A stretch of 64,000 nucleotides of DNA from the sequence record MW630116.1. One strand, given 5' to 3'. The translations under genes and the position numbers were made by a program. Shown piece by piece: positions 3,813 through 43,516 of this stretch. This DNA is from Escherichia phage vB_EcoM-ZQ3. The notes beneath the pieces were generated by a model, which had not been told where the DNA came from, searched no databases, and saw only the letters and a list, made by a program, of their open reading frames with translations. Numbering within the stretch: position 1 is the first letter of the stretch; every line of letters starts with the position of its first letter.

Positions 3813-4013
3813 ATGAGAACATATAACGTGGACTTGGAACTTTTTGATAAAGCAGTGCTCCGGGAATTCCGGCTTATCCAAAGATTTTTTGATATCGAGT
3901 CAGCAGAGTCCTTTAAAGAACGCTTTAAAGAAATTCGATATAAAATACAAACCGATACAGCTACTAAAGAAGAACTTCTTGAAGTAGCAGAAATTTTTAA
4001 ACGTAACTTGTGA
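3813..4013 (+). CDS. hypothetical small protein (66 aa), rIIA.1-like position
   Basis: ORF track; immediately upstream of rIIA with 12-nt spacing. Confidence 0.5.
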   Translation: MRTYNVDLELFDKAVLREFRLIQRFFDIESAESFKERFKEIRYKIQTDTATKEELLEVAEIFKRNL

Positions 4014-4025
4014 TGAGAGAAAAAT

Positions 4026-6239
4026 ATGATTATTGAAACGGCTAAAGAAACGATTATTGGTTCAGGCGGTAAGAGCACAGCATTCACTATTCAAGGCAAT
4101 AGCAAAGTTTATAAGATTTTGTCTAATGACCTTTATACAAACAAAGAATTGGCTTGTGTACGTGAATTAATCACAAACTGTATTGATGGACAAATTCTTA
4201 ATGGTTGCACTGATAAGTTTATTGTTCAGGCTCCAGGTCGTTTAGACCCACGTTTTGTAGTTCGAGACTTTGGTCCTGGTATGAGTGATTTCACCATTAG
4301 AGGTAATGACGAAGAGCCAGGAATCTATAACTCATATTTTGCTTCAACTAAAACATCGAGTAACGATTTCATTGGTGGATTCGGACTCGGCTCTAAAGCT
4401 CCGCTAGCATATACCGATACATTTAACCTTACGTCTTATCACAACGGTGAAGTTCGTGGTTACGTAATCTACCAAGATGACACAGGTCCACAAATTAAGC
4501 CGACCTTTGTAGATAAGATGGGTCCTGATGACCGTACGGGTGTAGAAGTAGTTGTACCGGTTAACCCGGAAGATTTTGAAAAGTTCGCATCCGAAATTGC
4601 ATATGTTATGCGTCCTCTAGGTGATATTGCAGAAGTTCGTGGTGTTAAAGATATTAAATACTTCCCTGAATTTGACGATGTATATTTGGCCAAGGAAGCT
4701 CCATGGGGTGAACGCGGTAATATCATGGCTGTTTACGGTGGTATTGTATATCCAATCGGAAGTGTTATTAAAGAACAAACATGGATGATGACTCGATGCA
4801 CCACAGCTTATATTAAATTCCCTATGGGTGAACTAGACGTAGCTCCGTCTCGTGAAGCATTGTCATTTGATAAACGTACAGTAGCAAATATCCATAAACG
4901 CGTTGCAGAAATTGATGCAAAATTATTTGCTGAAGATTCTAAGAAATGGATTGATTGTAAATACCCGCGTCATGTATTCCGTGAAATTGATTCTCTTGGT
5001 TATACCGCTCGTAAATACATGGAAAAGGCTGGGTCTAATATTGAATCACTGAAATACTCTAAAGAACAACTAACTTATTCTGAGTTGTACAAACGTTTTA
5101 AAATGGGGCCTGAGTGGTGTAATCTTGGCGTCGTATATGATATCGTTGAATCCCCTCGTCTTCGTCGTATTCGTGAAAGTGGTAGCTCATCATCGACCAT
5201 TTCAATTAACAGCCTGATTGGCATTAACATTAAAAATGTTGAAATCGTTATTGACGACGTTAAGGGACGCGTTCCATTAATGCGAGCTCTTAATTCAATT
5301 GAAATGTCTAAAGACGAGGTTAAATTAACTGGTAAAGTTCCACGCGGTTTTGGTAAAAGTGTACTATTCGTTGACCCTACAGACGAAGATGCAATGAAAC
5401 TTCTGGAACGCCTTAAAGTTATCTTTGATGGCGACAACATTAACATGTACAAGACTTCAGAGCTTTTACAAATCGTTAAGCCATGGATTGAAGTCAGGAA
5501 ACGGACTAATGAGCCTCGTCCTAAATCGCCAAGTGCTCATCGATTCTTTAAGAATGAAAACGACGTTTGGGTATCAGAAGATCTCTTTATTCCAGCGAGT
5601 GAAGCAGATGAAATCCAAGGTTATGCTATAGTTCGTAATCGTTCTAATGCTGAATGTCTTGACGCAGATAAAGGTTGGTTGAACTATGACTCCAATTTCT
5701 TGACCCGTATTGCTGATTTGTCAGGTATTAAAGAGTTCACTGTAGTTCGTCCACAGATTGCTAAGAAAGTTCGTAAACTTGGTGAAGTAGAATGCTTGTT
5801 CGAAAAATCAATTAATGACTATATTACGCTAATCGATAAAGTGGATTATGATGAGTATGTATCACCAAGTCGTAGAGCACAGCCTTATTTGAATCATATT
5901 ACTCGTAATGAAGAGCTTAACTTCCTTAGTAAGTATTTTAGCTCTAAAAACAAAGAAATCAGTAAAGATTTTGCAAAACTCTCAACAGTAAATAATCGTT
6001 GGGGATGGAATCGATTCGCAGGTGCTGAAAACAGAGATCTGAACAGGAAGTTAGAATTGTGTGCTAAAATTTTCGATAAGCTTAAAGATAATGCTTACGA
6101 TAATGATGATAAAATGGTTATTGAATTCGAAACCAATTATCATATTGTGTCAGAATACATGGGACGACGTGGTACTCTTTCTAAAGAACAGGTCGCTCAA
6201 ATCGTTAAATTCATGAAGGCCGTGGAAGCGGCCAAATAA
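4026..6239 (+). CDS. rIIA: rIIA lysis-inhibition / rapid-lysis protein (GHKL ATPase-like)
   Basis: 737-aa ORF (T4 rIIA is about 725 aa); N-terminal ATPase-like motif ELITNCIDG; followed 9 nt later by rIIB. Confidence 0.88.
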   Translation: MIIETAKETIIGSGGKSTAFTIQGNSKVYKILSNDLYTNKELACVRELITNCIDGQILNGCTDKFIVQAPGRLDPRFVVRDFGPGMSDFTIRGNDEEPGIYNSYFASTKTSSNDFIGGFGLGSKAPLAYTDTFNLTSYHNGEVRGYVIYQDDTGPQIKPTFVDKMGPDDRTGVEVVVPVNPEDFEKFASEIAYVMRPLGDIAEVRGVKDIKYFPEFDDVYLAKEAPWGERGNIMAVYGGIVYPIGSVIKEQTWMMTRCTTAYIKFPMGELDVAPSREALSFDKRTVANIHKRVAEIDAKLFAEDSKKWIDCKYPRHVFREIDSLGYTARKYMEKAGSNIESLKYSKEQLTYSELYKRFKMGPEWCNLGVVYDIVESPRLRRIRESGSSSSTISINSLIGINIKNVEIVIDDVKGRVPLMRALNSIEMSKDEVKLTGKVPRGFGKSVLFVDPTDEDAMKLLERLKVIFDGDNINMYKTSELLQIVKPWIEVRKRTNEPRPKSPSAHRFFKNENDVWVSEDLFIPASEADEIQGYAIVRNRSNAECLDADKGWLNYDSNFLTRIADLSGIKEFTVVRPQIAKKVRKLGEVECLFEKSINDYITLIDKVDYDEYVSPSRRAQPYLNHITRNEELNFLSKYFSSKNKEISKDFAKLSTVNNRWGWNRFAGAENRDLNRKLELCAKIFDKLKDNAYDNDDKMVIEFETNYHIVSEYMGRRGTLSKEQVAQIVKFMKAVEAAK

Positions 6240-7238: not shown

Positions 7239-7526
7239 ATGATTCATCCATTTGACGTATCAGAATCCAAAATTGCTAATCTTCGTGGTCATCATAAGTG
7301 TAAATCGGTTTATTGTGCTAAATTGGTAAAACACCCAGGTGATGCACACTATGGCTGGTTAGAATGCGACGAAGTTGTTAATGAAATTCCACCTGTAGAT
7401 GCTGAATATCTTGAAGAAGGTGACCGCATTTATTTTGGCGAACTACACATCAGAGGTATCTATGGTAAAGACGAACTTGGGATTGTTGAGACTGAAGAGT
7501 CTTCCGACATTTATCCTGTCGAATGA
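7239..7526 (+). CDS. hypothetical protein (95 aa)
   Basis: In-frame ATG at 7239 inside ORF-track entry 7200..7526; starts just after the terminator. Confidence 0.5.
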   Translation: MIHPFDVSESKIANLRGHHKCKSVYCAKLVKHPGDAHYGWLECDEVVNEIPPVDAEYLEEGDRIYFGELHIRGIYGKDELGIVETEESSDIYPVE

Positions 7527-20543: not shown

Positions 20544-23500
20544 TTATTCAATCCACTCGAATTTAACAGATTTATTCACAGGATCTGGAATAATGCGGAC
20601 ATTACCAATCCTTAAGAAATCCCTTATTGTCAAGTTTCCGATTGTTGCATTATCAGAAGGTAAAGCGCCAATATCAGAAGGTTGAGGAGGGTTTCCACCA
20701 TCAAATACCTGAACAAAACTCGACCAAGAATTTTTAGTTTTCTGCCATGTACGTGTCCAACGGGTTGTACGTGCTTCTGGAGTTGTTGGATAAGTAATCC
20801 AATCTTGGTAAAGCGAATCAAGTGTGTTACCAAACTGAGTCAGTGTACCAGGAGATTTAACTTCTTCGCCACGTTCTAAGTATGGAAGTCCAGTCACTTC
20901 ATTAGTTTTTTCAACCATTTTAAAATAACCCGGGAACTGGTTATAAGTGGCTGAATCGTTAATATCTATTGACCAGAATCCGACTGTATCAGCAGTAGGA
21001 GCACGAGTGTATAAATCAGCAGTTTTAGAACCATGAGAACGAATTCTCGAGTTAACAGTTAAACCACCTGAATTTATAGTAGCACCTTTGGCAATGATTA
21101 AGCCTTCACCAATCGTTACTTGGCCGGATGCATTATTAATAGCTAAAGGACGTAATCCATTAAATCCGCCAGTCTGATCACCTGATGCAGTAAGCATAAA
21201 ATAGGTATTAACAGCATCATTACGAATAAAGAATCCGTAATTACCACTAATTGCTCTGAATGCGTTTGCACTATAGGTTATAAATTCACCCTGTGCTGTC
21301 ACCGAACGTCCAAATGTTGCCGCACCATTAGCATTCAATGTTCCGGATGCATTAACATTAATCGGCCGAACTGTACCGTTGATGCTGAAAGTAATATTAC
21401 CAAGGTTATCCCGTTGTGAATAAAAGTGGTTAGATGTTTCATCACCAACTTCAAATATCGTAGCACGAGATGTATCAGAACCGCCGGCGAATTGGTTACC
21501 CCATACACGGATATTCATCGCCTGAGCAGGGTTGTTTCCAGTTTGTGGACCTTTTTCAAATATTAAGCGAGTTGAAGCACCTGTATTAGAAATAGTTAAT
21601 GTACTATTAGCAGATACCGAACCACCAAACGTAGCCGTACTAGATGATACAAGAGGGGCACTCAGATTCGTTTGTTGGGTTAAGGTTAGTGAACCATTAA
21701 CCGTCTGTGCAATGTCCCTACGAATGAACTGAGATGAATCTAGGCCATCTAATAAATTTGCGTCAGCAGCTTTTGCTTTTAATGGCAAGTAATTTGCCAA
21801 TACACGGTTTAATTCATACGGTGATACTGCATAGCTATTTTTCTCGTATAGCTCTAAGTTTTGTGTAGAACCGACTGTATCATTACCAACGAATGTAATA
21901 GAACCGGATGAAGTTTTAACGAATCCGCGAATTGCTGTAGTAGCAGCCCATGTTGGTTCACTCTGCACAATCCATTTTAAATTCTTAGGAGATACAGCAG
22001 TGTTCGCTGACGTTCCAGTCACAGTTTCAGACTGGGTTGCAACCTTGATTACACCTTCAGACGTTTCAGTGGACTTAGTCCCTAAAAGCTTTTTAGGAGT
22101 AATAAGAACATCATCTAAAGTTCCTGCATTAGATTCTGCCTGGGTCGCTACGCGAAGTGTACCACGTTGTGTTTCATTTGCTTTAGAAATATCAAGAGTA
22201 TAATGGTTCCACAAGGTTCCTTCTTCAATAAGTCCGGAATCAGAATTAACACTGGTACGGTCAGAAGAATCAAAATGAGTTTTAATTTTCAGTGGAGTTG
22301 AGATACGAGTATCATCAGTTCCAGTATCAAATTCAACTTGCGTAGCAATTTCGGCTATGCCGGATAATCCTTCCGTAGCTTTCCTATCATTTAACGTCTT
22401 AGGCGTTACTGCACGTGTATAATCAGTCCCAGCATTAGTTTCTGTTTGCGTAGCAATTTCAATTAAACCAATACGTCCATCAGTAGAAGTTTTCTTATGT
22501 AGTGTTTCAGGAGTTACTACAGCGTGAGAATAACCTGCTTGTGATTGACCAGCAATTACTTCACTATCAACAGCTAAAATTACTGCACCTTGTTGAGCAT
22601 ACGTTGCTTTATATTGGTCAAGGGCTTTAGGAGAAATAGTTAAATTATTTACGGTTTTATTATAAACGTTAGTGCCTGCGGCCCCACGAGTTTCGGCAGG
22701 AGTAGCAGAAGTAGTTGATACATATTTAACTATACCAGATAGTGTTTCAGAACCCTGACGTGCCTGCAATTTCTTAGGTGTAATAATCGTTGTGTCATCA
22801 AGACCAGCATCGGTTTCAGTCTGAGTAGCAATTTCGGCAAGACCGCGACGAGTTTCAGTTGCTGTACGCTCATTTAGTTTTTTAGGCGTAACAATAGTAT
22901 CGTCCACAAATGATGCTGTGGAATTCTGGTTAACTTGTGCTGTTGTAGCAATTTTAGCGATACCACGTCGAGCTTCAGTTGCTGTACGATTTGCCAACGT
23001 TTCAGGAGTAATAGCAACTTCTTTAGCTGGAGTATTCTCTAAATCAACATTTGCTTGCGCTTGAGTAGCAAGAGCAATAACACCTAAACGAGCTCGTGTA
23101 GCATCAGTTCCAGCATCAACACGTTCTACCGTAGGGACGTTTTGTTGAACAACCCAATAACGTGTACCAGCAACGGTGTCTTCGATATACGATAATTCTA
23201 ATACAGGAACATATGAAGTAGTGCCATTGAATTCTAGTTCAGTAACAGAGACCCATTGAGCATCAGGTGGATATTCAGAACGTTTAGGGAACTGAAGCAA
23301 CGCAACAGAAGAAGCAATTGTATCACCTTCGGCAGCTTTAATTTTTACTGTTTGGCCTTTACGCATGTAGTTCATTGAAATTTTAACAGTGTCACCACTC
23401 AAAATTCCAGTAGGCAGCGTAAGATTAATAGTTCCGGTTGTAGCGTTATTTGTGCCAAAAATAAGAACTTCTTCATTTGGACGAATATTTGAATCAGCAC

Positions 23501-24419
23501 GGATAATACGAAGACGCGATTTCTGGCCGCCTTCCCATATACGCCATAAACTATTTGAAGCATCAAAAACAAAAAACGCGTCAGAGTCATTTCTGCCTTC
23601 GGCAATATGAGTCCCGACTTCACCAATAGACGTTGTATCATCAAATGTTTTAACAATTGTATGATACAGCGGGTTTAATTTATCTAAATCGACTAGGCTG
23701 ATTATATCACCATTGTTAGCATTACGTGGAAGTGTAATGTTGATTGGTGCTGCACTAGTAAAACGACGAATGATAAAATCATTTGCTTGTGCTTGATATG
23801 GCGCCGCAGGTGTAACAGTGATTGATTCTTTACCATAATCAATGATATACATCTGCCACAAACGATTACTAAACACAAACAATAGTTGTGAACGTGGGCG
23901 CGTCATTAAAACTGTACGAACTTGTTCACCTCTAAAGTTTAAAATACTCTGCACAGACGCGTTAATCTGTACTTTAACTGTCCCGGTTCTTCCACCAATA
24001 TCAGCCAAAACAACAGTATCACCATCAACCGGTGCACTTGGCAACGTGAAAACCATATCATTGCCGGCACCAGTGTTAACCGAAATCGATTCACCTGAAG
24101 AAAGTTGATAAGTCCCAGAAGCGACAGTTATCCATTGTGCATCAGTACGAACTGCACGCCATTGTAAAAGGTTAAATGCCCCGGAAGGAGACACGATATC
24201 ATTTATTGCTTGATATAATCGGTTGTCATAAAGAACAACAAATCCTTTGTTATATCCACGCGTAGAATCATATACTTGAACGGTGTTTTCTTGTACCAGG
24301 AAGTCAACGTTTACGCCATCAGTACCTACTGTACGGTCGGCTAATGCTACGTTAACAATCTTGTCGCCACCGGCGTCCAGACCGTCTTCGGCTCTGAACT
24401 TACGTTTGATGTCGGCCAT
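20544..24419 (-). CDS. 34: gp34 long tail fibre proximal subunit
   Basis: 1291-aa ORF (T4 gp34 1289 aa); late promoter upstream; divergent from rnh as in T4. Confidence 0.88.
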   Translation of the reverse strand: MADIKRKFRAEDGLDAGGDKIVNVALADRTVGTDGVNVDFLVQENTVQVYDSTRGYNKGFVVLYDNRLYQAINDIVSPSGAFNLLQWRAVRTDAQWITVASGTYQLSSGESISVNTGAGNDMVFTLPSAPVDGDTVVLADIGGRTGTVKVQINASVQSILNFRGEQVRTVLMTRPRSQLLFVFSNRLWQMYIIDYGKESITVTPAAPYQAQANDFIIRRFTSAAPINITLPRNANNGDIISLVDLDKLNPLYHTIVKTFDDTTSIGEVGTHIAEGRNDSDAFFVFDASNSLWRIWEGGQKSRLRIIRADSNIRPNEEVLIFGTNNATTGTINLTLPTGILSGDTVKISMNYMRKGQTVKIKAAEGDTIASSVALLQFPKRSEYPPDAQWVSVTELEFNGTTSYVPVLELSYIEDTVAGTRYWVVQQNVPTVERVDAGTDATRARLGVIALATQAQANVDLENTPAKEVAITPETLANRTATEARRGIAKIATTAQVNQNSTASFVDDTIVTPKKLNERTATETRRGLAEIATQTETDAGLDDTTIITPKKLQARQGSETLSGIVKYVSTTSATPAETRGAAGTNVYNKTVNNLTISPKALDQYKATYAQQGAVILAVDSEVIAGQSQAGYSHAVVTPETLHKKTSTDGRIGLIEIATQTETNAGTDYTRAVTPKTLNDRKATEGLSGIAEIATQVEFDTGTDDTRISTPLKIKTHFDSSDRTSVNSDSGLIEEGTLWNHYTLDISKANETQRGTLRVATQAESNAGTLDDVLITPKKLLGTKSTETSEGVIKVATQSETVTGTSANTAVSPKNLKWIVQSEPTWAATTAIRGFVKTSSGSITFVGNDTVGSTQNLELYEKNSYAVSPYELNRVLANYLPLKAKAADANLLDGLDSSQFIRRDIAQTVNGSLTLTQQTNLSAPLVSSSTATFGGSVSANSTLTISNTGASTRLIFEKGPQTGNNPAQAMNIRVWGNQFAGGSDTSRATIFEVGDETSNHFYSQRDNLGNITFSINGTVRPINVNASGTLNANGAATFGRSVTAQGEFITYSANAFRAISGNYGFFIRNDAVNTYFMLTASGDQTGGFNGLRPLAINNASGQVTIGEGLIIAKGATINSGGLTVNSRIRSHGSKTADLYTRAPTADTVGFWSIDINDSATYNQFPGYFKMVEKTNEVTGLPYLERGEEVKSPGTLTQFGNTLDSLYQDWITYPTTPEARTTRWTRTWQKTKNSWSSFVQVFDGGNPPQPSDIGALPSDNATIGNLTIRDFLRIGNVRIIPDPVNKSVKFEWIE

Positions 24420-24449
24420 TCGTTTTTCCTTTATTGTTTCAATAATACT

Positions 24450-24457
24450 TATTTATA
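24450..24457 (-). promoter_or_regulatory. late promoter TATAAATA for gene 34
   Basis: Plus strand tatttata, reverse complement TATAAATA, about 30 nt upstream of the gene 34 start. Confidence 0.6.
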
Positions 24458-24460
24458 CCA

Positions 24461-24522
24461 GTTTACGCTTTCAAATGAGTGTGTTACTATAGACAAGTTG
24501 ACTAACTGAACAAGAGGTTCAT
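24461..24522 (+). promoter_or_regulatory. early promoter (GTTTAC ... tactatag) for rnh
   Basis: gtttacgctttcaaatgagtgtgttactatagacaagttgactaactgaacaagaggttcatATG. Confidence 0.5.
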
Positions 24523-25440
24523 ATGGATTTAGAAATGATGTTGGATGAAGATTACAAAGAAGGTATTGCACTTGCCGACTTTAGTAACATTGCATTGGCC
24601 GCCGCATTAAACAACTTTGAAGACGGCGATAAAATTACTGTTCCGATGGTTCGCCATGTAATCTTGAATTCAATTCGTAAAAACGTGGTGATGTTCCGTA
24701 AGCAAGGCTATACAAAATTTGTATTGTGTATGGATAATGCTACTTCAGGTTATTGGCGTCGTGACTTTGCTTACTATTACAAGAAAAATCGTAAAACCGA
24801 TCGTGAAGCTTCAAAGTGGGATTGGGAAGGATATTTTACTGCACTCCATCAAGTTGTTGATGAGATTAAGAAATACATGCCATACGTTGTAATGGATATT
24901 GACAAGTATGAAGCGGATGACCATATCGGTGTATTAACTAAATATTTGTCATTAGCTGGTCATAAGGTATGTATTGTTGCATCAGATGGTGACTTTACAC
25001 AATTACACAAATATCCTAACGTTAAACAGTGGTCGCCACCACAGAAAAAATGGGTTAAAATTAAGAACGGTTCTGCTGAAATTGATTGCATGACTAAAAT
25101 TCTTAAAGGTGACCGTAAAGATGGCGTTGCATCTGTTCGAGTTCGTGGTGACTTCTGGTTTACTCGAGTTGATGGTGAACGAACTCCGAGCATGAAAACA
25201 ACGATTATTGAAGCAATTGCCAATGACCGTTCTCAAGCCGAAGTATTATTAAGTGCAGAAGAATATAAACGGTATCAAGAAAATTTGGTTCTCATTGATT
25301 TTGATTATATCCCTGATAATATTGCTTCAACCATTATAGAGTATTATAACTCATATAAACCACAACCTAAAGGCAAGATTTATTCATACTTTGTAAAATC
25401 TGGTCTTTCTAAATTAACAAGTGTAATTAATGAATTCTGA
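24523..25440 (+). CDS. rnh: RNase H (5'-3' exonuclease / flap endonuclease)
   Basis: 305-aa ORF (T4 RNase H 305 aa); sequence matches T4 rnh as I recall it; synteny next to gene 34. Confidence 0.9.
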   Translation: MDLEMMLDEDYKEGIALADFSNIALAAALNNFEDGDKITVPMVRHVILNSIRKNVVMFRKQGYTKFVLCMDNATSGYWRRDFAYYYKKNRKTDREASKWDWEGYFTALHQVVDEIKKYMPYVVMDIDKYEADDHIGVLTKYLSLAGHKVCIVASDGDFTQLHKYPNVKQWSPPQKKWVKIKNGSAEIDCMTKILKGDRKDGVASVRVRGDFWFTRVDGERTPSMKTTIIEAIANDRSQAEVLLSAEEYKRYQENLVLIDFDYIPDNIASTIIEYYNSYKPQPKGKIYSYFVKSGLSKLTSVINEF

Positions 25441-38337: not shown

Positions 38338-39419
<1,082 letters not shown>

Positions 39420-39420
<1 letters not shown>

Positions 39421-40101: not shown

Positions 40102-40159
40102 GTTTACAACATGGTGGAGTTGTGATACTATAACTCTACCAACAAATGAGGAAATAGAA
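40102..40159 (+). promoter_or_regulatory. early promoter cassette with 9-bp dyad (ggtggagtt / aactctacc)
   Basis: gtttacaacatggtggagttgtgatactataactctaccaacaaatgaggaaatagaaATG. Confidence 0.55.
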
Positions 40160-40396
40160 ATGCTAAGTGAAAACCCAATTACAGTACACGAATTTCAGAT
40201 TAAAGTAAAAGAATTTGCTCAAGCACTCATCAATAAAGTGTCTGAACGTTTCCAAGATGCAACATTACGAGTTATTCAAGAATCTCCACGTTCTTTTCTC
40301 ATAATCGTTAATCCTAAAGATGGTGACCAAATTACTAATCTTAAATTAGGCAGTGATGGTCTTGTTGAAGCAACTCGAGTATATGGAACACTATAA
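40160..40396 (+). CDS. hypothetical protein (78 aa)
   Basis: ORF track. Confidence 0.5.
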   Translation: MLSENPITVHEFQIKVKEFAQALINKVSERFQDATLRVIQESPRSFLIIVNPKDGDQITNLKLGSDGLVEATRVYGTL

Positions 40397-40516
40397 TGAG
40401 AGCTATCTCATTACTATCGTGAATGGTCATAAATCTGAGCACTACCAACTTAGCCTGTCTAATCCGGTTAAAGGTATTGTTGAATCAGAATCTGTTTATA
40501 TCTCCTAAGGATTGTT

Positions 40517-41509
40517 ATGTTACCTGTCATCAGAAAACTTATTTCTCCAAAAGAACTGGCTGAGATTATTCCTTTGTCGGAAGCTTACGCATCACAAGTG
40601 GCTTCTCATCGCGAACAAGTTAATTCGATTATGAACGGTGAAGACCCACGCAAACTTATTGTTGTAGGTCCTTGTTCAATTCATGACCCTATTGCTGCTG
40701 TTGAATACGGCAAACGTCTGGCTGAACTTCAAACTCGTCTTCCTAATGTTCTGTTAGTGATGCGCGTTTATTTTGAAAAGCCTCGAACTACCGTAGGTTG
40801 GAAAGGTCTTGTAAATGATCCATATCTTGACGGAAGTTTTGATATGAACCACGGTCTTATAGTTGCACGAACATTGTGTCGTAAACTTCTACGTATGGGA
40901 CTTCCATTAGCAACTGAAGTATTAGACCCATTCACGATTAAGTATCTTTCTGGTATTTTCTCATGGGTTGCTATTGGCGCCCGTACGACTGAAAGTCAGA
41001 CACATCGTGAAATTGCTTCAGGTCTACCGATGTGCGTAGGCTTCAAGAACGCAACCAATGGTTCTATTAAAGTAGCTACAGACGCGATGTATAGTGCCGC
41101 CTGGCCTCATCGGTATATGGGTATGGACGTCGATGGTACTGTAGGCATTGTTGAAGCTGAAGGTAATCAGAATACGCATATCGTATTGCGTGGCGGGACT
41201 AACGGCCCGAACTATCATTCTTCTGATATTCAAGAAGCTTCTAACAAAGCAAGTGCATTAGGTCTGAATCATTATGTAATGGTTGACTGTAGCCATGCAA
41301 ACGCTGATGGGTATTATAGCAATCAAATTGGTATTGGTAAAAATTTAGCAGCTAATGATTTGGTCAAAGGAATTATGATAGAATCATTCCTACATGAAGG
41401 AAATCAAAAAATTTCTGATAATATGTCCTATGGCGTTTCCGTTACCGATGCGTGCATCGGTTGGGAACAAACTAAAGAGCTGTTAACTTATATTAATAAG
41501 GTTCAATAA
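40517..41509 (+). CDS. 3-deoxy-D-arabino-heptulosonate 7-phosphate (DAHP) synthase, class I alpha (AroG/AroF/AroH-like)
   Basis: 330-aa ORF with canonical motifs aligned to E. coli AroG as I recall it: VVGPCSIHDP, MRVYFEKPRTTVGWKGL, IGARTTESQTHRE, VGFKN, DCSHAN, ESFLHEGNQ, TDACIGWE; stop overlaps cd start. Confidence 0.9.
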   Translation: MLPVIRKLISPKELAEIIPLSEAYASQVASHREQVNSIMNGEDPRKLIVVGPCSIHDPIAAVEYGKRLAELQTRLPNVLLVMRVYFEKPRTTVGWKGLVNDPYLDGSFDMNHGLIVARTLCRKLLRMGLPLATEVLDPFTIKYLSGIFSWVAIGARTTESQTHREIASGLPMCVGFKNATNGSIKVATDAMYSAAWPHRYMGMDVDGTVGIVEAEGNQNTHIVLRGGTNGPNYHSSDIQEASNKASALGLNHYVMVDCSHANADGYYSNQIGIGKNLAANDLVKGIMIESFLHEGNQKISDNMSYGVSVTDACIGWEQTKELLTYINKVQ

Positions 41510-42090
41510 TGAAAGCTAGCACATATCTTCAAATTGCTTATTTGATTTCTCAAGAATCAAAATGTTGTTCATGGAAAGTTGGTGCCGTCATTGAAAAAGA
41601 TGGACGCATTATCTCTACTGGATATAATGGCTCACCCGCAGGTGGCGTTAACTGTTGTGAACATGCATCCGAAAATGGTTGGTTGAAGAATAAACCAAGC
41701 CCGGTCATCGTTGCTGGACATAAAGAAGGCACTACAGCATTTGGACGGGCAGATAATTTTGTTTTGGCTAAAGAACATCGGGCCGCTCATAGTGCATGGT
41801 CTGCCAATAACGAAATCCATGCGGAACTGAATGCAATTTTGTTTGCAGCTCGTAAAGGTAATTCTATTGAAGGTGCTACGTTATATACTACGCTTTCTCC
41901 ATGTCCTGATTGCACTAAAGCTATTACGCAGTCAGGTATTAAAAAGGTTGTATATGCAGAATTATATGACCGATCTCCTGAAAATTGGGCAGACATTCTT
42001 AAACAAGCTGGTATTGAAGTAATTCAGTACTCTCGTAATAATCTTCGTTCTCTGAATTGGGAACAAATCCGAAACTTTTGTGGTGAATAA
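41509..42090 (+). CDS. cd: dCMP deaminase
   Basis: 193-aa ORF (T4 Cd 193 aa) with zinc-binding deaminase motifs HAELNAI and SPCPDC. Confidence 0.88.
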   Translation: MKASTYLQIAYLISQESKCCSWKVGAVIEKDGRIISTGYNGSPAGGVNCCEHASENGWLKNKPSPVIVAGHKEGTTAFGRADNFVLAKEHRAAHSAWSANNEIHAELNAILFAARKGNSIEGATLYTTLSPCPDCTKAITQSGIKKVVYAELYDRSPENWADILKQAGIEVIQYSRNNLRSLNWEQIRNFCGE

Positions 42091-43151: not shown

Positions 43152-43516
43152 GTTAAATCGAGGAGCCGTCGAACTGTCTGATTAATGATTTGCGAATCAT
43201 TATAGTTTTAAGACCCCGGCAGTTTTACGGTGTACCTCTTGAATGTTATTCTTATAGCGGCAAGTGCATGCTACCCCGAGGTGATGGCCAATCGGGAGTA
43301 CGCCTCAAGGCCTATATATCCATCAGTATATATCTTATCCTCGAGAAATCGAACCCGGAACCTTTAAGCTAACGGTGTGCAACAGATAAGAGCTATAAGG
43401 TATGATGACGGGTTTATGGTTATCCTGTCGTTAAATATCCGAAAACCTATGTTCCCCTTGAGGGCTTGCGCAGGCAATGTCAATAAGTCCTGCATTTTCA
43501 TTAAAGAGAATTTATA
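43152..43516. other. ORF-poor, relatively GC-rich intergenic region (about 365 nt) of unknown function
   Basis: No convincing ORF in any frame; contains hairpin taatgatt-tgcg-aatcatta (43183-43202); atypical for this otherwise tightly packed AT-rich genome. Confidence 0.5.

Follow-up and report, generated by a model that had tools for sequence, protein, structure and literature searches.

The 330-residue protein encoded next to the dCMP deaminase gene cd of Escherichia phage vB_EcoM-ZQ3 is a type I-alpha DAHP synthase (3-deoxy-7-phosphoheptulonate synthase, DAHPS), as judged from its sequence and its structural model. The gene itself is already known; it is an accessory gene that is routinely annotated in Mosigvirus and other T4-like phages related to it. 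What this analysis adds is an allosteric-site signature that extends over the whole phage clade, in which the N-terminus is shortened and the canonical inhibitor pocket is replaced. On balance we favor, with reasonable but far from complete confidence, a reading in which the phage makes an active, early-transcribed and feedback-insensitive enzyme that would hold the shikimate entry step open and supply aromatics. All positions refer to the window, the whole stretch of 64,000 nucleotides that was analyzed (MW630116.1).

Gene boundaries and transcript

The host phage of the gene is T4-like and belongs to Mosigvirus. All six class I-alpha motifs that first pointed to this family are present in the translation: GPCSIHDP at residues 51–58, KPRTTVGWKG at 88–97, GARTTESQ at 154–161, DCSHAN at 257–262, EGNQ at 294–297 and TDACIGWE at 310–317. 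The N-terminus cannot extend further upstream, because between the in-frame TGA at 40481 and the annotated start there is no ATG, GTG or TTG. A Shine-Dalgarno sequence, TAAGGA, lies 5 nt 5' of the ATG. The stop codon does overlap the start of cd as originally predicted, with one base shared between TAA and ATG (TAATG); "fused" into the cd operon is nevertheless a misnomer, as DAHPS and cd are two separate, tightly packed reading frames. The Shine-Dalgarno sequence of cd (AAGG, 7 nt 5' of its start) is located inside the 3' end of DAHPS. Co-translation of the two genes, also proposed earlier, is plausible here but is not a conserved feature, since in other genera they are separated by a gap of 0–2 nt or by one to two small ORFs.

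Table 1. Features of the cd.2–DAHPS–cd region, with positions in the window.
Feature	Position	Strand	Description
Early promoter-like site, T4-type	40103..40131	+	TTTACA, 17 nt spacer, TG-TACTAT; between cd.3 and cd.2
cd.2 homologue, 78 aa	40160..40396	+	65% identical to T4 Cd.2, E = 7e-35; phrog_1504
Candidate 41-aa ORF	40383..40508	+	Hypothetical protein in SSE1 and Bas47 annotations (MK639187, MZ501047)
Left 13-nt direct repeat ATAATGAGAGCTA	40393..40405	+	Degenerate copy of cd start region
DAHP synthase gene	40517..41509	+	ATG 40517 to TAA 41507–41509; 330 aa
Right 13-nt direct repeat ATAATGAAAGCTA	41506..41518	+	Spans DAHPS stop and cd start
dCMP deaminase cd, 193 aa	41509..42090	+	PF00383 92.7 bits; phrog_174 253.7 bits

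The promoter-like site sits about 390 nt upstream of DAHPS. Approximately 40 nt around it align almost base for base with the region of the T4 early promoter Pe133295, which also lies between cd.3 and cd.2. This homology to an annotated T4 site is the evidence for the promoter, and not the promoter and terminator scan, which overall found no enrichment over shuffled sequence (21 sites against 19.3 expected). The scan gave no terminator-like site on the + strand between the promoter and cd. The site is the probable start of a cd.2–DAHPS–cd transcript, so that DAHPS would probably be transcribed early, together with its two neighbors, from a conserved T4-type promoter. Rfam and tRNA scans of the whole window returned no matches. 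The candidate 41-aa ORF is contained within a 51-aa ORF (40353..40508). The two direct repeats match at 12 of 13 bases, and RB69, which is without DAHPS, has one copy of the repeat exactly at the cd.2/cd junction.

Fold and catalytic residues

The phage protein matches the DAHP synthase families far above their cutoffs: NCBIfam TIGR00034 (aroFGH) at 426.8 bits (cutoff 173.2), PRK12755 at 454.1 bits (cutoff 343) and PF00793 at 250.5 bits (cutoff 25.5). Among PDB sequences it matches the E. coli AroF structure 6AGM with E = 3.9e-104. The AroG-specific and AroH-specific models remain under their cutoffs, so the protein cannot be assigned to any single E. coli isozyme. KDO8P synthase, the other branch of PF00793, was considered and rejected, as only DAHPS families matched in NCBIfam and the E4P motif KPRTTVGWKG is present.

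The protein is 51, 48 and 45% identical to AroF, AroG and AroH, respectively, and is of the same fold and length class, but lacks about 8–11 N-terminal and about 10–20 C-terminal residues and carries two short internal deletions. The AF2 model (pLDDT 94.4, pTM 0.92) is a (β/α)8 barrel with the I-alpha additions, namely N-terminal helices and the β6a/β6b hairpin, and Foldseek superimposes it on the N. meningitidis and E. coli DAH7PS structures with TM scores of 0.94–0.96 and rmsd of 1.4–1.6 Å. The β6a/β6b regulatory hairpin is kept and confidently modelled (strands 198–203 and 209–214); at the position of AroG residue 211 it has Gly, which is also the residue of AroF.

Alignment to the three E. 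coli enzymes shows the metal ligands and the PEP-binding and E4P-binding residues to be identical. In AroG numbering, the metal ligands are Cys61, His268, Glu302 and Asp326, and the PEP and E4P residues are Arg92, Lys97, Pro98, Arg99, Thr100, Gly163, Ala164, Arg165, Lys186 and Arg234. This set, taken partly from PMC9529685 and partly from AroG structures, is identical at 14 of 14 checked residues in all 15 phage-clade copies tabulated. The best explanation is that phage DAHPS is catalytically active and is predicted to convert PEP and erythrose-4-phosphate to DAHP.

N-terminus and inhibitor pocket

The original prediction suggested that a shorter N-terminus than that of AroG may alter feedback control. 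The protein is indeed shorter, also relative to AroF and AroH, and this is a property of the clade: the first six or more residues are missing in 31 of 31 phage copies, and the catalytic Cys is preceded by 48–52 residues, whereas every bacterial relative (n = 98) has 58 or more. Asp6 and Asp7 of AroG are said, in the 1KFL structure paper, to take part in inhibitor binding.

The pocket is changed as well. We scanned without bias for alignment columns fixed in at least 90% of each group but with a different residue, using 30–31 phage copies and 98 bacterial relatives. Only six columns separate the two groups, with the substitutions P150I, Q151K, D155G, S180P, F209Y and T223A common to the phage copies (AroG numbering). 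The E. coli enzymes have P, Q, D, S, F and T at these positions (G at 150 in AroH). These residues are kept in 91–100% of the 98 bacterial relatives, or 91–98% per position for the canonical pocket set of 150, 151, 155, 180 and 209, while I150, K151, Y209 or A223 was seen in none of them. According to a review (PMC9529685), Q151 and S180 of AroG bind the main chain of the inhibitor, D155 forms a salt bridge, and P150L, S180F and F209A/S are feedback-resistant changes. Five of the six separating positions are documented there as inhibitor-site or feedback-resistance positions (hypergeometric p = 3.7e-7, for a position list compiled after the fact). Four of the replacements, P150I, Q151K, S180P and F209Y, fall on residues that contact or shape the inhibitor pocket.

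The phage clade is thus naturally changed at three positions (150, 180 and 209) that are altered in engineered aroG-fbr alleles (P150L, S180F, F209A/S, L175D, D146N), and also at the inhibitor-contacting Q151. The residues differ, I, P, Y and K in place of L, F and A/S, and the phage changes form a fixed set of six combined with the N-terminal truncation; resistance of the phage enzyme is a prediction. With the pocket replaced and the N-terminal residues that help close the AroG site missing, Tyr, Phe and Trp would be unable to switch the enzyme off, and we infer that phage DAHPS is probably insensitive to all three. The suggestion of altered feedback control gains strength from this clade-wide pattern in the aligned sequences. 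Since the canonical pocket is replaced, the GenBank labels "Tyr-sensitive" or "aroF" on many phage copies are probably over-specific.

Insensitivity is not the only way to read the new pocket. The site may be retuned and not disabled, with DAHPS regulated by a different ligand or partner and a phage-specific signal taking the place of Tyr, Phe or Trp. Among divergent phage genera 14 of 19 pocket positions are invariant, compared with 111 of 330 for the whole protein; a merely disabled site would not obviously need such conservation, and the pocket could still bind something. The retained and well-modelled hairpin fits this idea, and a ligand would be given space by Gly at AroG position 211 and a charge by Lys at 151; the lysine could still bind a carboxylate. 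However, segments 146–152 and 175–181 are also highly conserved in bacteria, where they have structural roles, so conservation alone is no proof. With its first N-terminal residues gone the site would stay open, single changes at these positions abolish AroG inhibition, and the ligand is purely hypothetical. We consider retuning unlikely, and equally so the wider idea that the pocket is not broken but rebuilt as a strictly conserved new site, which would leave the enzyme locked on or sensing an infection-specific ligand.

Distribution, selection and proposed role

The gene is not new, contrary to what the original prediction implied: about 140 near-identical Mosigvirus genomes already have it annotated, and it occurs in 212 phage records. 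The protein belongs over its full length to phrog_5045 (603 bits), which is categorized as auxiliary metabolic, and the phage proteins named "phospho-2-dehydro-3-deoxyheptonate aldolase" (Mosigvirus, Kanagawavirus KLB31 and others) are the same gene without difference. The SSE1 protein (Shigella phage) has 100% identity to the window protein, and a cluster of 164 sequences has 98%. The gene was flagged as a candidate auxiliary metabolic gene in bioRxiv 10.1101/2020.01.19.911818 and PMC11845039. So far as these two sources and the phrog_5045 annotation are searchable, they do not discuss the allosteric-site signature. The searchable literature yielded annotation-level mentions only, and no enzyme assay, expression data, knockout phenotype or fitness study of the gene. 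BASEL phage Bas47 (AlbertHofmann) carries it, and the BASEL paper contains nothing on it.

The position pseT...cd.2-DAHPS-(cd.1)-cd is shared by at least six genera (Mosigvirus, Kanagawavirus, Winklervirus, Kagamiyamavirus, Marfavirus and Bragavirus) and by a divergent metagenomic T4-like contig. In T4 the interval from pseT to cd contains nothing but cd.5 to cd.1, in line with the original prediction, and RB69, although of the same genus Mosigvirus, lacks the gene. DAHPS is dispensable, as both phages grow well without it. Matches in "Acinetobacter phage MD-2021a" were left out, because they lie on bacterial contigs with clpS, clpA and fadH.

In a neighbor-joining tree the phage copies form one clade, with 57–77% identity across genera over the whole protein. 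Identity to the best bacterial match is about 55%, and GC content is 40.9% overall and 29% at third codon positions (GC3), compared with 52% and 50% in E. coli aroF; the identity and the GC3 value rule out a recent copy of a host gene. Between genera dN/dS is 0.15–0.18, where some pairs approach synonymous saturation (dS 1.2–1.8) and PEi26 versus Entb_45 (dS 0.62) is the most reliable. Within Mosigvirus there are 9 nonsynonymous and 4 synonymous differences, and 9–13 differences are too few for an estimate of selection; they occur at positions also variable between genera. No frameshift was found in the copies examined. Phage DAHPS has been under long-term purifying selection. It is a host-type enzyme, conserved and under selection in a virulent phage, as is characteristic of auxiliary metabolic genes.

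How could such an enzyme serve the phage? Because Alc and further shut-off functions are encoded by the phage, the host would be unable to induce aroF, aroG and aroH after infection. In that situation the phage enzyme would keep the first, flux-controlling step of the shikimate pathway open. It would thereby provide aromatic amino acids, and perhaps also cofactors made from chorismate, to a proteome that contains more Tyr and Phe than that of the host: F+Y+W make up 10.0% of residues in the phage ORFs (Y 4.3%), compared with 7.6% (Y 2.6%) in a sample of 41 E. coli genes. This demand argument is weak, because the T4 proteome is similarly AT-rich and aromatic-rich and T4 does without the gene. 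The redirection of host carbon, as originally proposed, and any benefit to the phage are inferred. Cyanophage pentose-phosphate and photosynthesis genes are single-enzyme auxiliary metabolic genes at pathway control points, and the phage DAHPS resembles them in that one flux-controlling host-type enzyme is carried and not a whole pathway; the pathway and the host group are different, and the effect of DAHPS is a prediction.

A quite different role was also considered. DAHPS might act as a sink that drains E4P and PEP and in this way draws the non-oxidative pentose-phosphate pathway toward pentoses for nucleotides, or as a specificity variant that uses arabinose-5-phosphate and is linked to arabinosyl-hydroxymethylcytosine, a DNA modification of Mosigvirus. 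Five-carbon sugar phosphates are poor substrates of some DAHP synthases, and the gene sits among nucleotide-metabolism genes, adjoining cd. Many DAHPS-bearing phages also carry arabinose-5-phosphate isomerase and other putative UDP-arabinose genes, of the kind listed for a similar phage set (PMC8056088). However, RB69, in which arabinosyl-hydroxymethylcytosine was discovered (PMC8056088), makes the modification without DAHPS, and the isomerase is distributed differently, which rules out that the modification requires DAHPS. For the isomerase there are 57 Acinetobacter-named records and 6 from Yersinia phages. DAHPS matches under an Acinetobacter name (4 records) all belong to the mislabelled bacterial assembly, Yersinia is absent among the DAHPS matches listed, and about 22 Klebsiella phage records have DAHPS without the isomerase. 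Draining E4P would also waste carbon, and the intact KPRT motif and catalytic set, with no KDO8P-synthase family match, speak against this role as well. This role is very improbable. Least probable of all is that the gene is carried along neutrally or is decaying and plays no part in infection, which would suit the absence of the gene from RB69 and T4 and the nonsynonymous excess within Mosigvirus, but not the catalytic residues kept down to 56% identity, the low dN/dS with intact frames, the position held in at least six genera, the composition fully adjusted to the phage, or within-genus changes confined to positions that vary between genera.

The preferred reading, a feedback-insensitive DAHP synthase, bears on why the gene is carried. 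If the insensitivity is real, there is a clear rationale for a virulent phage to carry the first of seven pathway enzymes and no other: once host transcription has stopped, an unregulated entry enzyme would be the one remaining control over shikimate flux. The question can be tested directly, as Bas47 carries the gene and RB69, of the same genus, naturally lacks it. The enzyme would also be a natural, stable, deregulated scaffold for metabolic engineering. If the pocket has been rebuilt, it would represent a virus-evolved deregulation of the entry into aromatic biosynthesis, unlike any of the feedback-resistant alleles made in the laboratory.

Identity of the protein and its feedback-inhibitor site

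By sequence and by model, the product of the DAHPS gene is securely a type I-alpha DAHP synthase (3-deoxy-7-phosphoheptulonate synthase). The protein exceeds the curated cutoffs of NCBIfam TIGR00034 (aroFGH, equivalog; 426.8 bits against 173.2) and PRK12755 (454.1 against 343) and of Pfam PF00793 (250.5 against 25.5), and it scores below the cutoffs of the AroG-specific and AroH-specific NCBIfam models. All six motifs quoted in the original prediction occur in the translation. The closest solved structure is E. coli AroF (6AGM; E = 3.9e-104, alignment over residues 8–327), and identity to the MG1655 isozymes is 48% for AroG, 51% for AroF and 45% for AroH. An AlphaFold2 model made from a 53-sequence alignment (mean pLDDT 94.4, pTM 0.92) superposes on N. 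meningitidis and E. coli DAH7PS crystal structures with TM 0.94–0.96 and rmsd 1.4–1.6 Å, and it includes the β6a/β6b hairpin typical of type I-alpha enzymes. The metal ligands Cys61, His268, Glu302 and Asp326 (AroG numbering) and the PEP and erythrose-4-phosphate residues Arg92, Lys97, Pro98, Arg99, Thr100, Gly163, Ala164, Arg165, Lys186 and Arg234 are shared by the window protein and all tabulated phage homologues, 14 of 14 catalytic residues in all. The KPRT motif and the family scores make a KDO8P-type role unlikely.

Judged by residues, the phage clade departs systematically from the cellular enzymes only at the inhibitor site and leaves the catalytic machinery untouched. Only six columns have one residue in at least 90% of the phage clade and a different one in at least 90% of bacterial relatives: Pro150 to Ile, Gln151 to Lys, Asp155 to Gly, Ser180 to Pro, Phe209 to Tyr and Thr223 to Ala. 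After group membership was corrected by tree, Ile150, Lys151, Tyr209 and Ala223 were each found in none of the 98 bacterial sequences, Gly155 in one and Pro180 in two. Five of the six columns are documented inhibitor-site positions, since they are listed in a review (PMC9529685). This overlap, against 14 listed positions in about 330, has a hypergeometric p of 3.7e-7, which is indicative only because the list was compiled post hoc from that one source. The feedback-resistant AroG changes given there are P150L, S180F, F209A/S, D146N, L175D, L179A and V221A; Gln151 and Ser180 contact the inhibitor main chain in both AroG and AroF, and an Asp155 salt bridge stabilises the site (PMC9529685).

The N-terminus is also shorter than that of AroG, as had been noticed originally: 48–52 residues precede the catalytic Cys in every phage copy, whereas bacterial relatives all have at least 58. 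The shortening is real and not a mis-called start, because this frame has no start codon between the upstream in-frame stop (TGA at 40481) and the ATG at 40517. The ATG is preceded, at a distance of 5 nt, by a TAAGGA ribosome-binding site. The positions of AroG Asp6 and Asp7 fall in the missing stretch; in the Phe-bound AroG structure 1KFL these residues, from the neighbouring subunit, presumably help to bind the inhibitor.

With the catalytic set intact and the inhibitor site changed clade-wide, the straightforward prediction is that the phage enzyme would not be inhibited by Tyr, Phe or Trp. The GenBank labels 'Tyr-sensitive' or 'aroF', carried by many records, are probably over-specific. 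The changed pocket shows no drift, with 14 of its 19 positions invariant across the phage clade versus 111 of 330 positions overall. It may have been rebuilt for a purpose, with the active state locked or another effector bound; its constancy may also reflect structural constraint, the pocket segments being conserved in bacteria too.

The locus, its junctions and RB69

Features in and around the DAHPS locus (window coordinates)
Feature	Position	Strand	Detail
pseT (polynucleotide kinase/phosphatase)	38525–39420		split into 58-aa and 237-aa ORFs
Early promoter-like site	40103–40131	+	TTTACA, 17 nt, TG-TACTAT; homology to T4 region
cd.2	40160–40396	+	65% identical to T4 Cd.2
13-nt direct repeat, left copy	40393–40405		ATAATGAGAGCTA
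DAHPS ORF	40517–41509	+	330 codons, uninterrupted
13-nt direct repeat, right copy	41506–41518		ATAATGAAAGCTA
cd (dCMP deaminase)	41509–42090	+	ATG shares a base with the DAHPS TAA
Non-coding stretch	43152–43516		365 nt, rIII/30.9 interval

The neighbourhood of DAHPS is that of the T4 early region and reads alc, spanins, pseT, cd.4, cd.3, cd.2, DAHPS, cd, 31.2/31.1, 31 and rIII. T4 itself, as the original prediction said, has no DAHPS between pseT and cd, and its interval holds cd.5, cd.4, cd.3, cd.2 and cd.1. The ORF that separates DAHPS from cd in Winklervirus and EcS1 is homologous to Cd.1 (34%, E = 3e-10); with cd.2 upstream in the window, DAHPS is therefore flanked by cd.2 on one side and by cd.1 on the other, or by cd itself in genomes without cd.1. 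A survey of T4-like loci finds the same position in Mosigvirus, Kanagawavirus, Winklervirus, Kagamiyamavirus, Marfavirus and Bragavirus. A divergent T4-like contig from a metagenome keeps this position too, with a 4-nt overlap of DAHPS and cd; the gene of a more distant relative, P0022, is on a T4-like contig and does not adjoin cd.

DAHPS had been described as fused into the cd operon, with its stop overlapping the cd start. The two are separate ORFs with no fusion, and the overlap is 1 nt, the last base of the TAA (41507–41509) being the first of the cd ATG. A separate AAGG for cd sits 7 nt before the cd start, within the DAHPS 3′ end. Translational coupling is possible in the window; it is not a conserved property, because the spacing elsewhere varies from gaps of 0–2 nt to one or two small ORFs. 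The stretch around the promoter-like site aligns almost base for base with the region of T4 early promoter Pe133295 (cd.3/cd.2), and no + strand terminator-like site follows it. From these two features we reasonably infer that cd.2, DAHPS and cd would be co-transcribed early.

RB69, the type Mosigvirus, has cd.2 directly followed by cd, without DAHPS. In the window the two repeat copies, identical at 12 of 13 bases, delimit a 1113-nt cassette of a 41-aa ORF and the DAHPS gene, and the junction alignment shows a single copy at the RB69 cd.2/cd junction (RB69 7240–7260). The repeat looks like a deletion (or insertion) scar that gives the exact cassette boundaries. Because many genera have DAHPS at this locus, the simpler interpretation is that RB69 lost it when the repeats recombined; insertion with duplication is a less simple alternative. 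Whether lost in RB69 or inserted elsewhere, DAHPS is dispensable for laboratory growth.

Two neighbouring features were also recorded. The pseT split is due to a 4-nt deletion at about 38690 within a short repeat (AAAAAGAAAGTATCG in the window, AAAAAGAAAGAAAGTATCG in Shigella phage SSE1). The gene is intact, about 300 aa, in SSE1, RB69, Bas47 (another Mosigvirus) and T4, and the split is either a real pseudogene of the isolate or a sequencing or assembly error. The non-coding stretch recurs with at least 90% identity in 898 phage records from several T4-like genera, and SSE1 has a different, shorter sequence there. It has no Rfam or tRNA match, and its RNA fold z-score is −2.2, with 1 of 100 shuffles folding equally well.

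Distribution, previous reports and age

Copies at least 95% identical to the DAHPS gene are present in 139 phage records, of which nearly all are Mosigvirus of Escherichia or Shigella and most carry the label 'phospho-2-dehydro-3-deoxyheptonate aldolase', 'DAHP synthase' or 'aroF'. The DNA of the window gene is 100% identical to that of SSE1 (Mosigvirus JS09 species), but the 4.7 kb around it show 236 differences from SSE1 (about 5%), which indicates mosaic recombination among Mosigvirus genomes around the locus. Homologues occur in 212 phage records by tblastn, including Kanagawavirus (77%), Winklervirus (69%), Kagamiyamavirus EcS1 (68%), Klebsiella Marfavirus and relatives (67%) and Proteus Bragavirus (58%). 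Phage counts are inflated by mislabelled entries in the phage collection: the matching 'Acinetobacter phage MD-2021a' records (CAKLQH020000043.1 and CAKLQH020000056.1) are bacterial chromosome contigs with clpS, clpA, fadH and aroF. Aeromonas phage HJ05 (OQ594355.1), an unrelated 79-kb phage, has a distant DAHPS at 3899–5062 (38% identity, 387 aa), annotated only as hypothetical, with a long N-terminus and different pocket residues, and this gene was probably acquired independently. Similarly distant copies are in a few human-gut 'Bacteriophage sp.' contigs.

The gene and its reading as an auxiliary metabolic gene (AMG), proposed in the original prediction, are already in databases and literature as a hypothesis, and their novelty is low. 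The window protein matches a dedicated PHROGs family, phrog_5045, end to end (603 bits), under the category 'moron, auxiliary metabolic gene and host takeover'. Mosigvirus DAHP synthase is among suggested AMGs of unknown function (Olsen et al., bioRxiv 10.1101/2020.01.19.911818), aromatic amino acid supply was proposed for the Kanagawavirus KLB31 copy (2025 PLoS One paper, PMC11845039), and the domain was noted in the phiC120 genome paper (PMC8022965). No enzymology, expression data or genetics of phage DAHPS were found in the literature searched.

A neighbour-joining tree places all 31 phage-type sequences in a single clade. The closest proteins from bacteria show only about 50–55% identity, are longer (341–388 aa versus 319–343 aa for the phage copies) and belong to unrelated phyla (Planctomycetota, Kiritimatiellota, various Gammaproteobacteria). 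With 40.9% GC and 29% GC3 the gene resembles the phage (37.8% GC in the window) and not E. coli aroF, aroG and aroH (GC 52–53%; aroF GC3 50%). Between genera dN/dS is 0.15–0.18, and the cleanest pair, PEi26 and Entb_45, gives 0.17 at a dS of 0.62. Within Mosigvirus the 9 nonsynonymous and 4 synonymous differences are too few for a selection estimate, and they sit at positions also variable between genera. By these comparisons it is an old phage gene, vertically inherited and selectively maintained, and no recent host capture.

Possible role in infection

DAHP synthase is the flux-controlling entry to the shikimate pathway, and in metabolic engineering it is established that overexpression of a feedback-resistant allele alone lifts flux (background in PMC9529685). 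Phe, Tyr and Trp make up 10.0% of the ORFs of this phage versus 7.6% in a 41-gene E. coli K-12 sample, and Tyr 4.3% versus 2.6%; aromatic demand per residue is therefore about 1.3-fold higher, and that for Tyr 1.65-fold. The demand argument is weak because T4, with a similarly AT-rich genome, manages without DAHPS. Chorismate-derived cofactors (folate, quinones) are a possible beneficiary.

A link to the arabinosyl-hydroxymethylcytosine modification of Mosigvirus fails as a requirement. Many DAHPS-carrying phages also have arabinose-5-phosphate isomerase, but RB69, in which the modification was discovered, lacks DAHPS, and about 22 Klebsiella phage records have DAHPS and no isomerase. The isomerase is also in 57 Acinetobacter-named and 6 Yersinia phage records; Acinetobacter-named DAHPS matches are only 4 records of a mislabelled bacterial assembly, and Yersinia is absent among the DAHPS matches listed. 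In SSE1 the isomerase and a 'bifunctional protein', putative UDP-arabinose genes for this modification, lie beyond the window (SSE1 22675–25177), where they immediately follow the DNA polymerase gene; as annotated, the isomerase appears to begin about 17 codons too early, because all tblastn matches start at residue 18–19. A role of DAHPS as a sink for erythrose-4-phosphate or PEP is conceivable but has no support.

We favour a role at the pathway entry. Alc, a host transcription inhibitor, is encoded a few kb upstream of DAHPS, and because of it the infected cell would be unable to derepress aroF, aroG and aroH. An early-expressed, unregulated phage DAHPS would restore control of the shikimate entry step. 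The conserved position with its early-promoter context and the natural RB69 deletion with its 13-nt repeat boundary are each a useful addition to existing annotation. The clade-wide, statistically concentrated changes at the feedback site go beyond annotation and make a constitutively deregulated DAHP synthase a sharp prediction for these phages.
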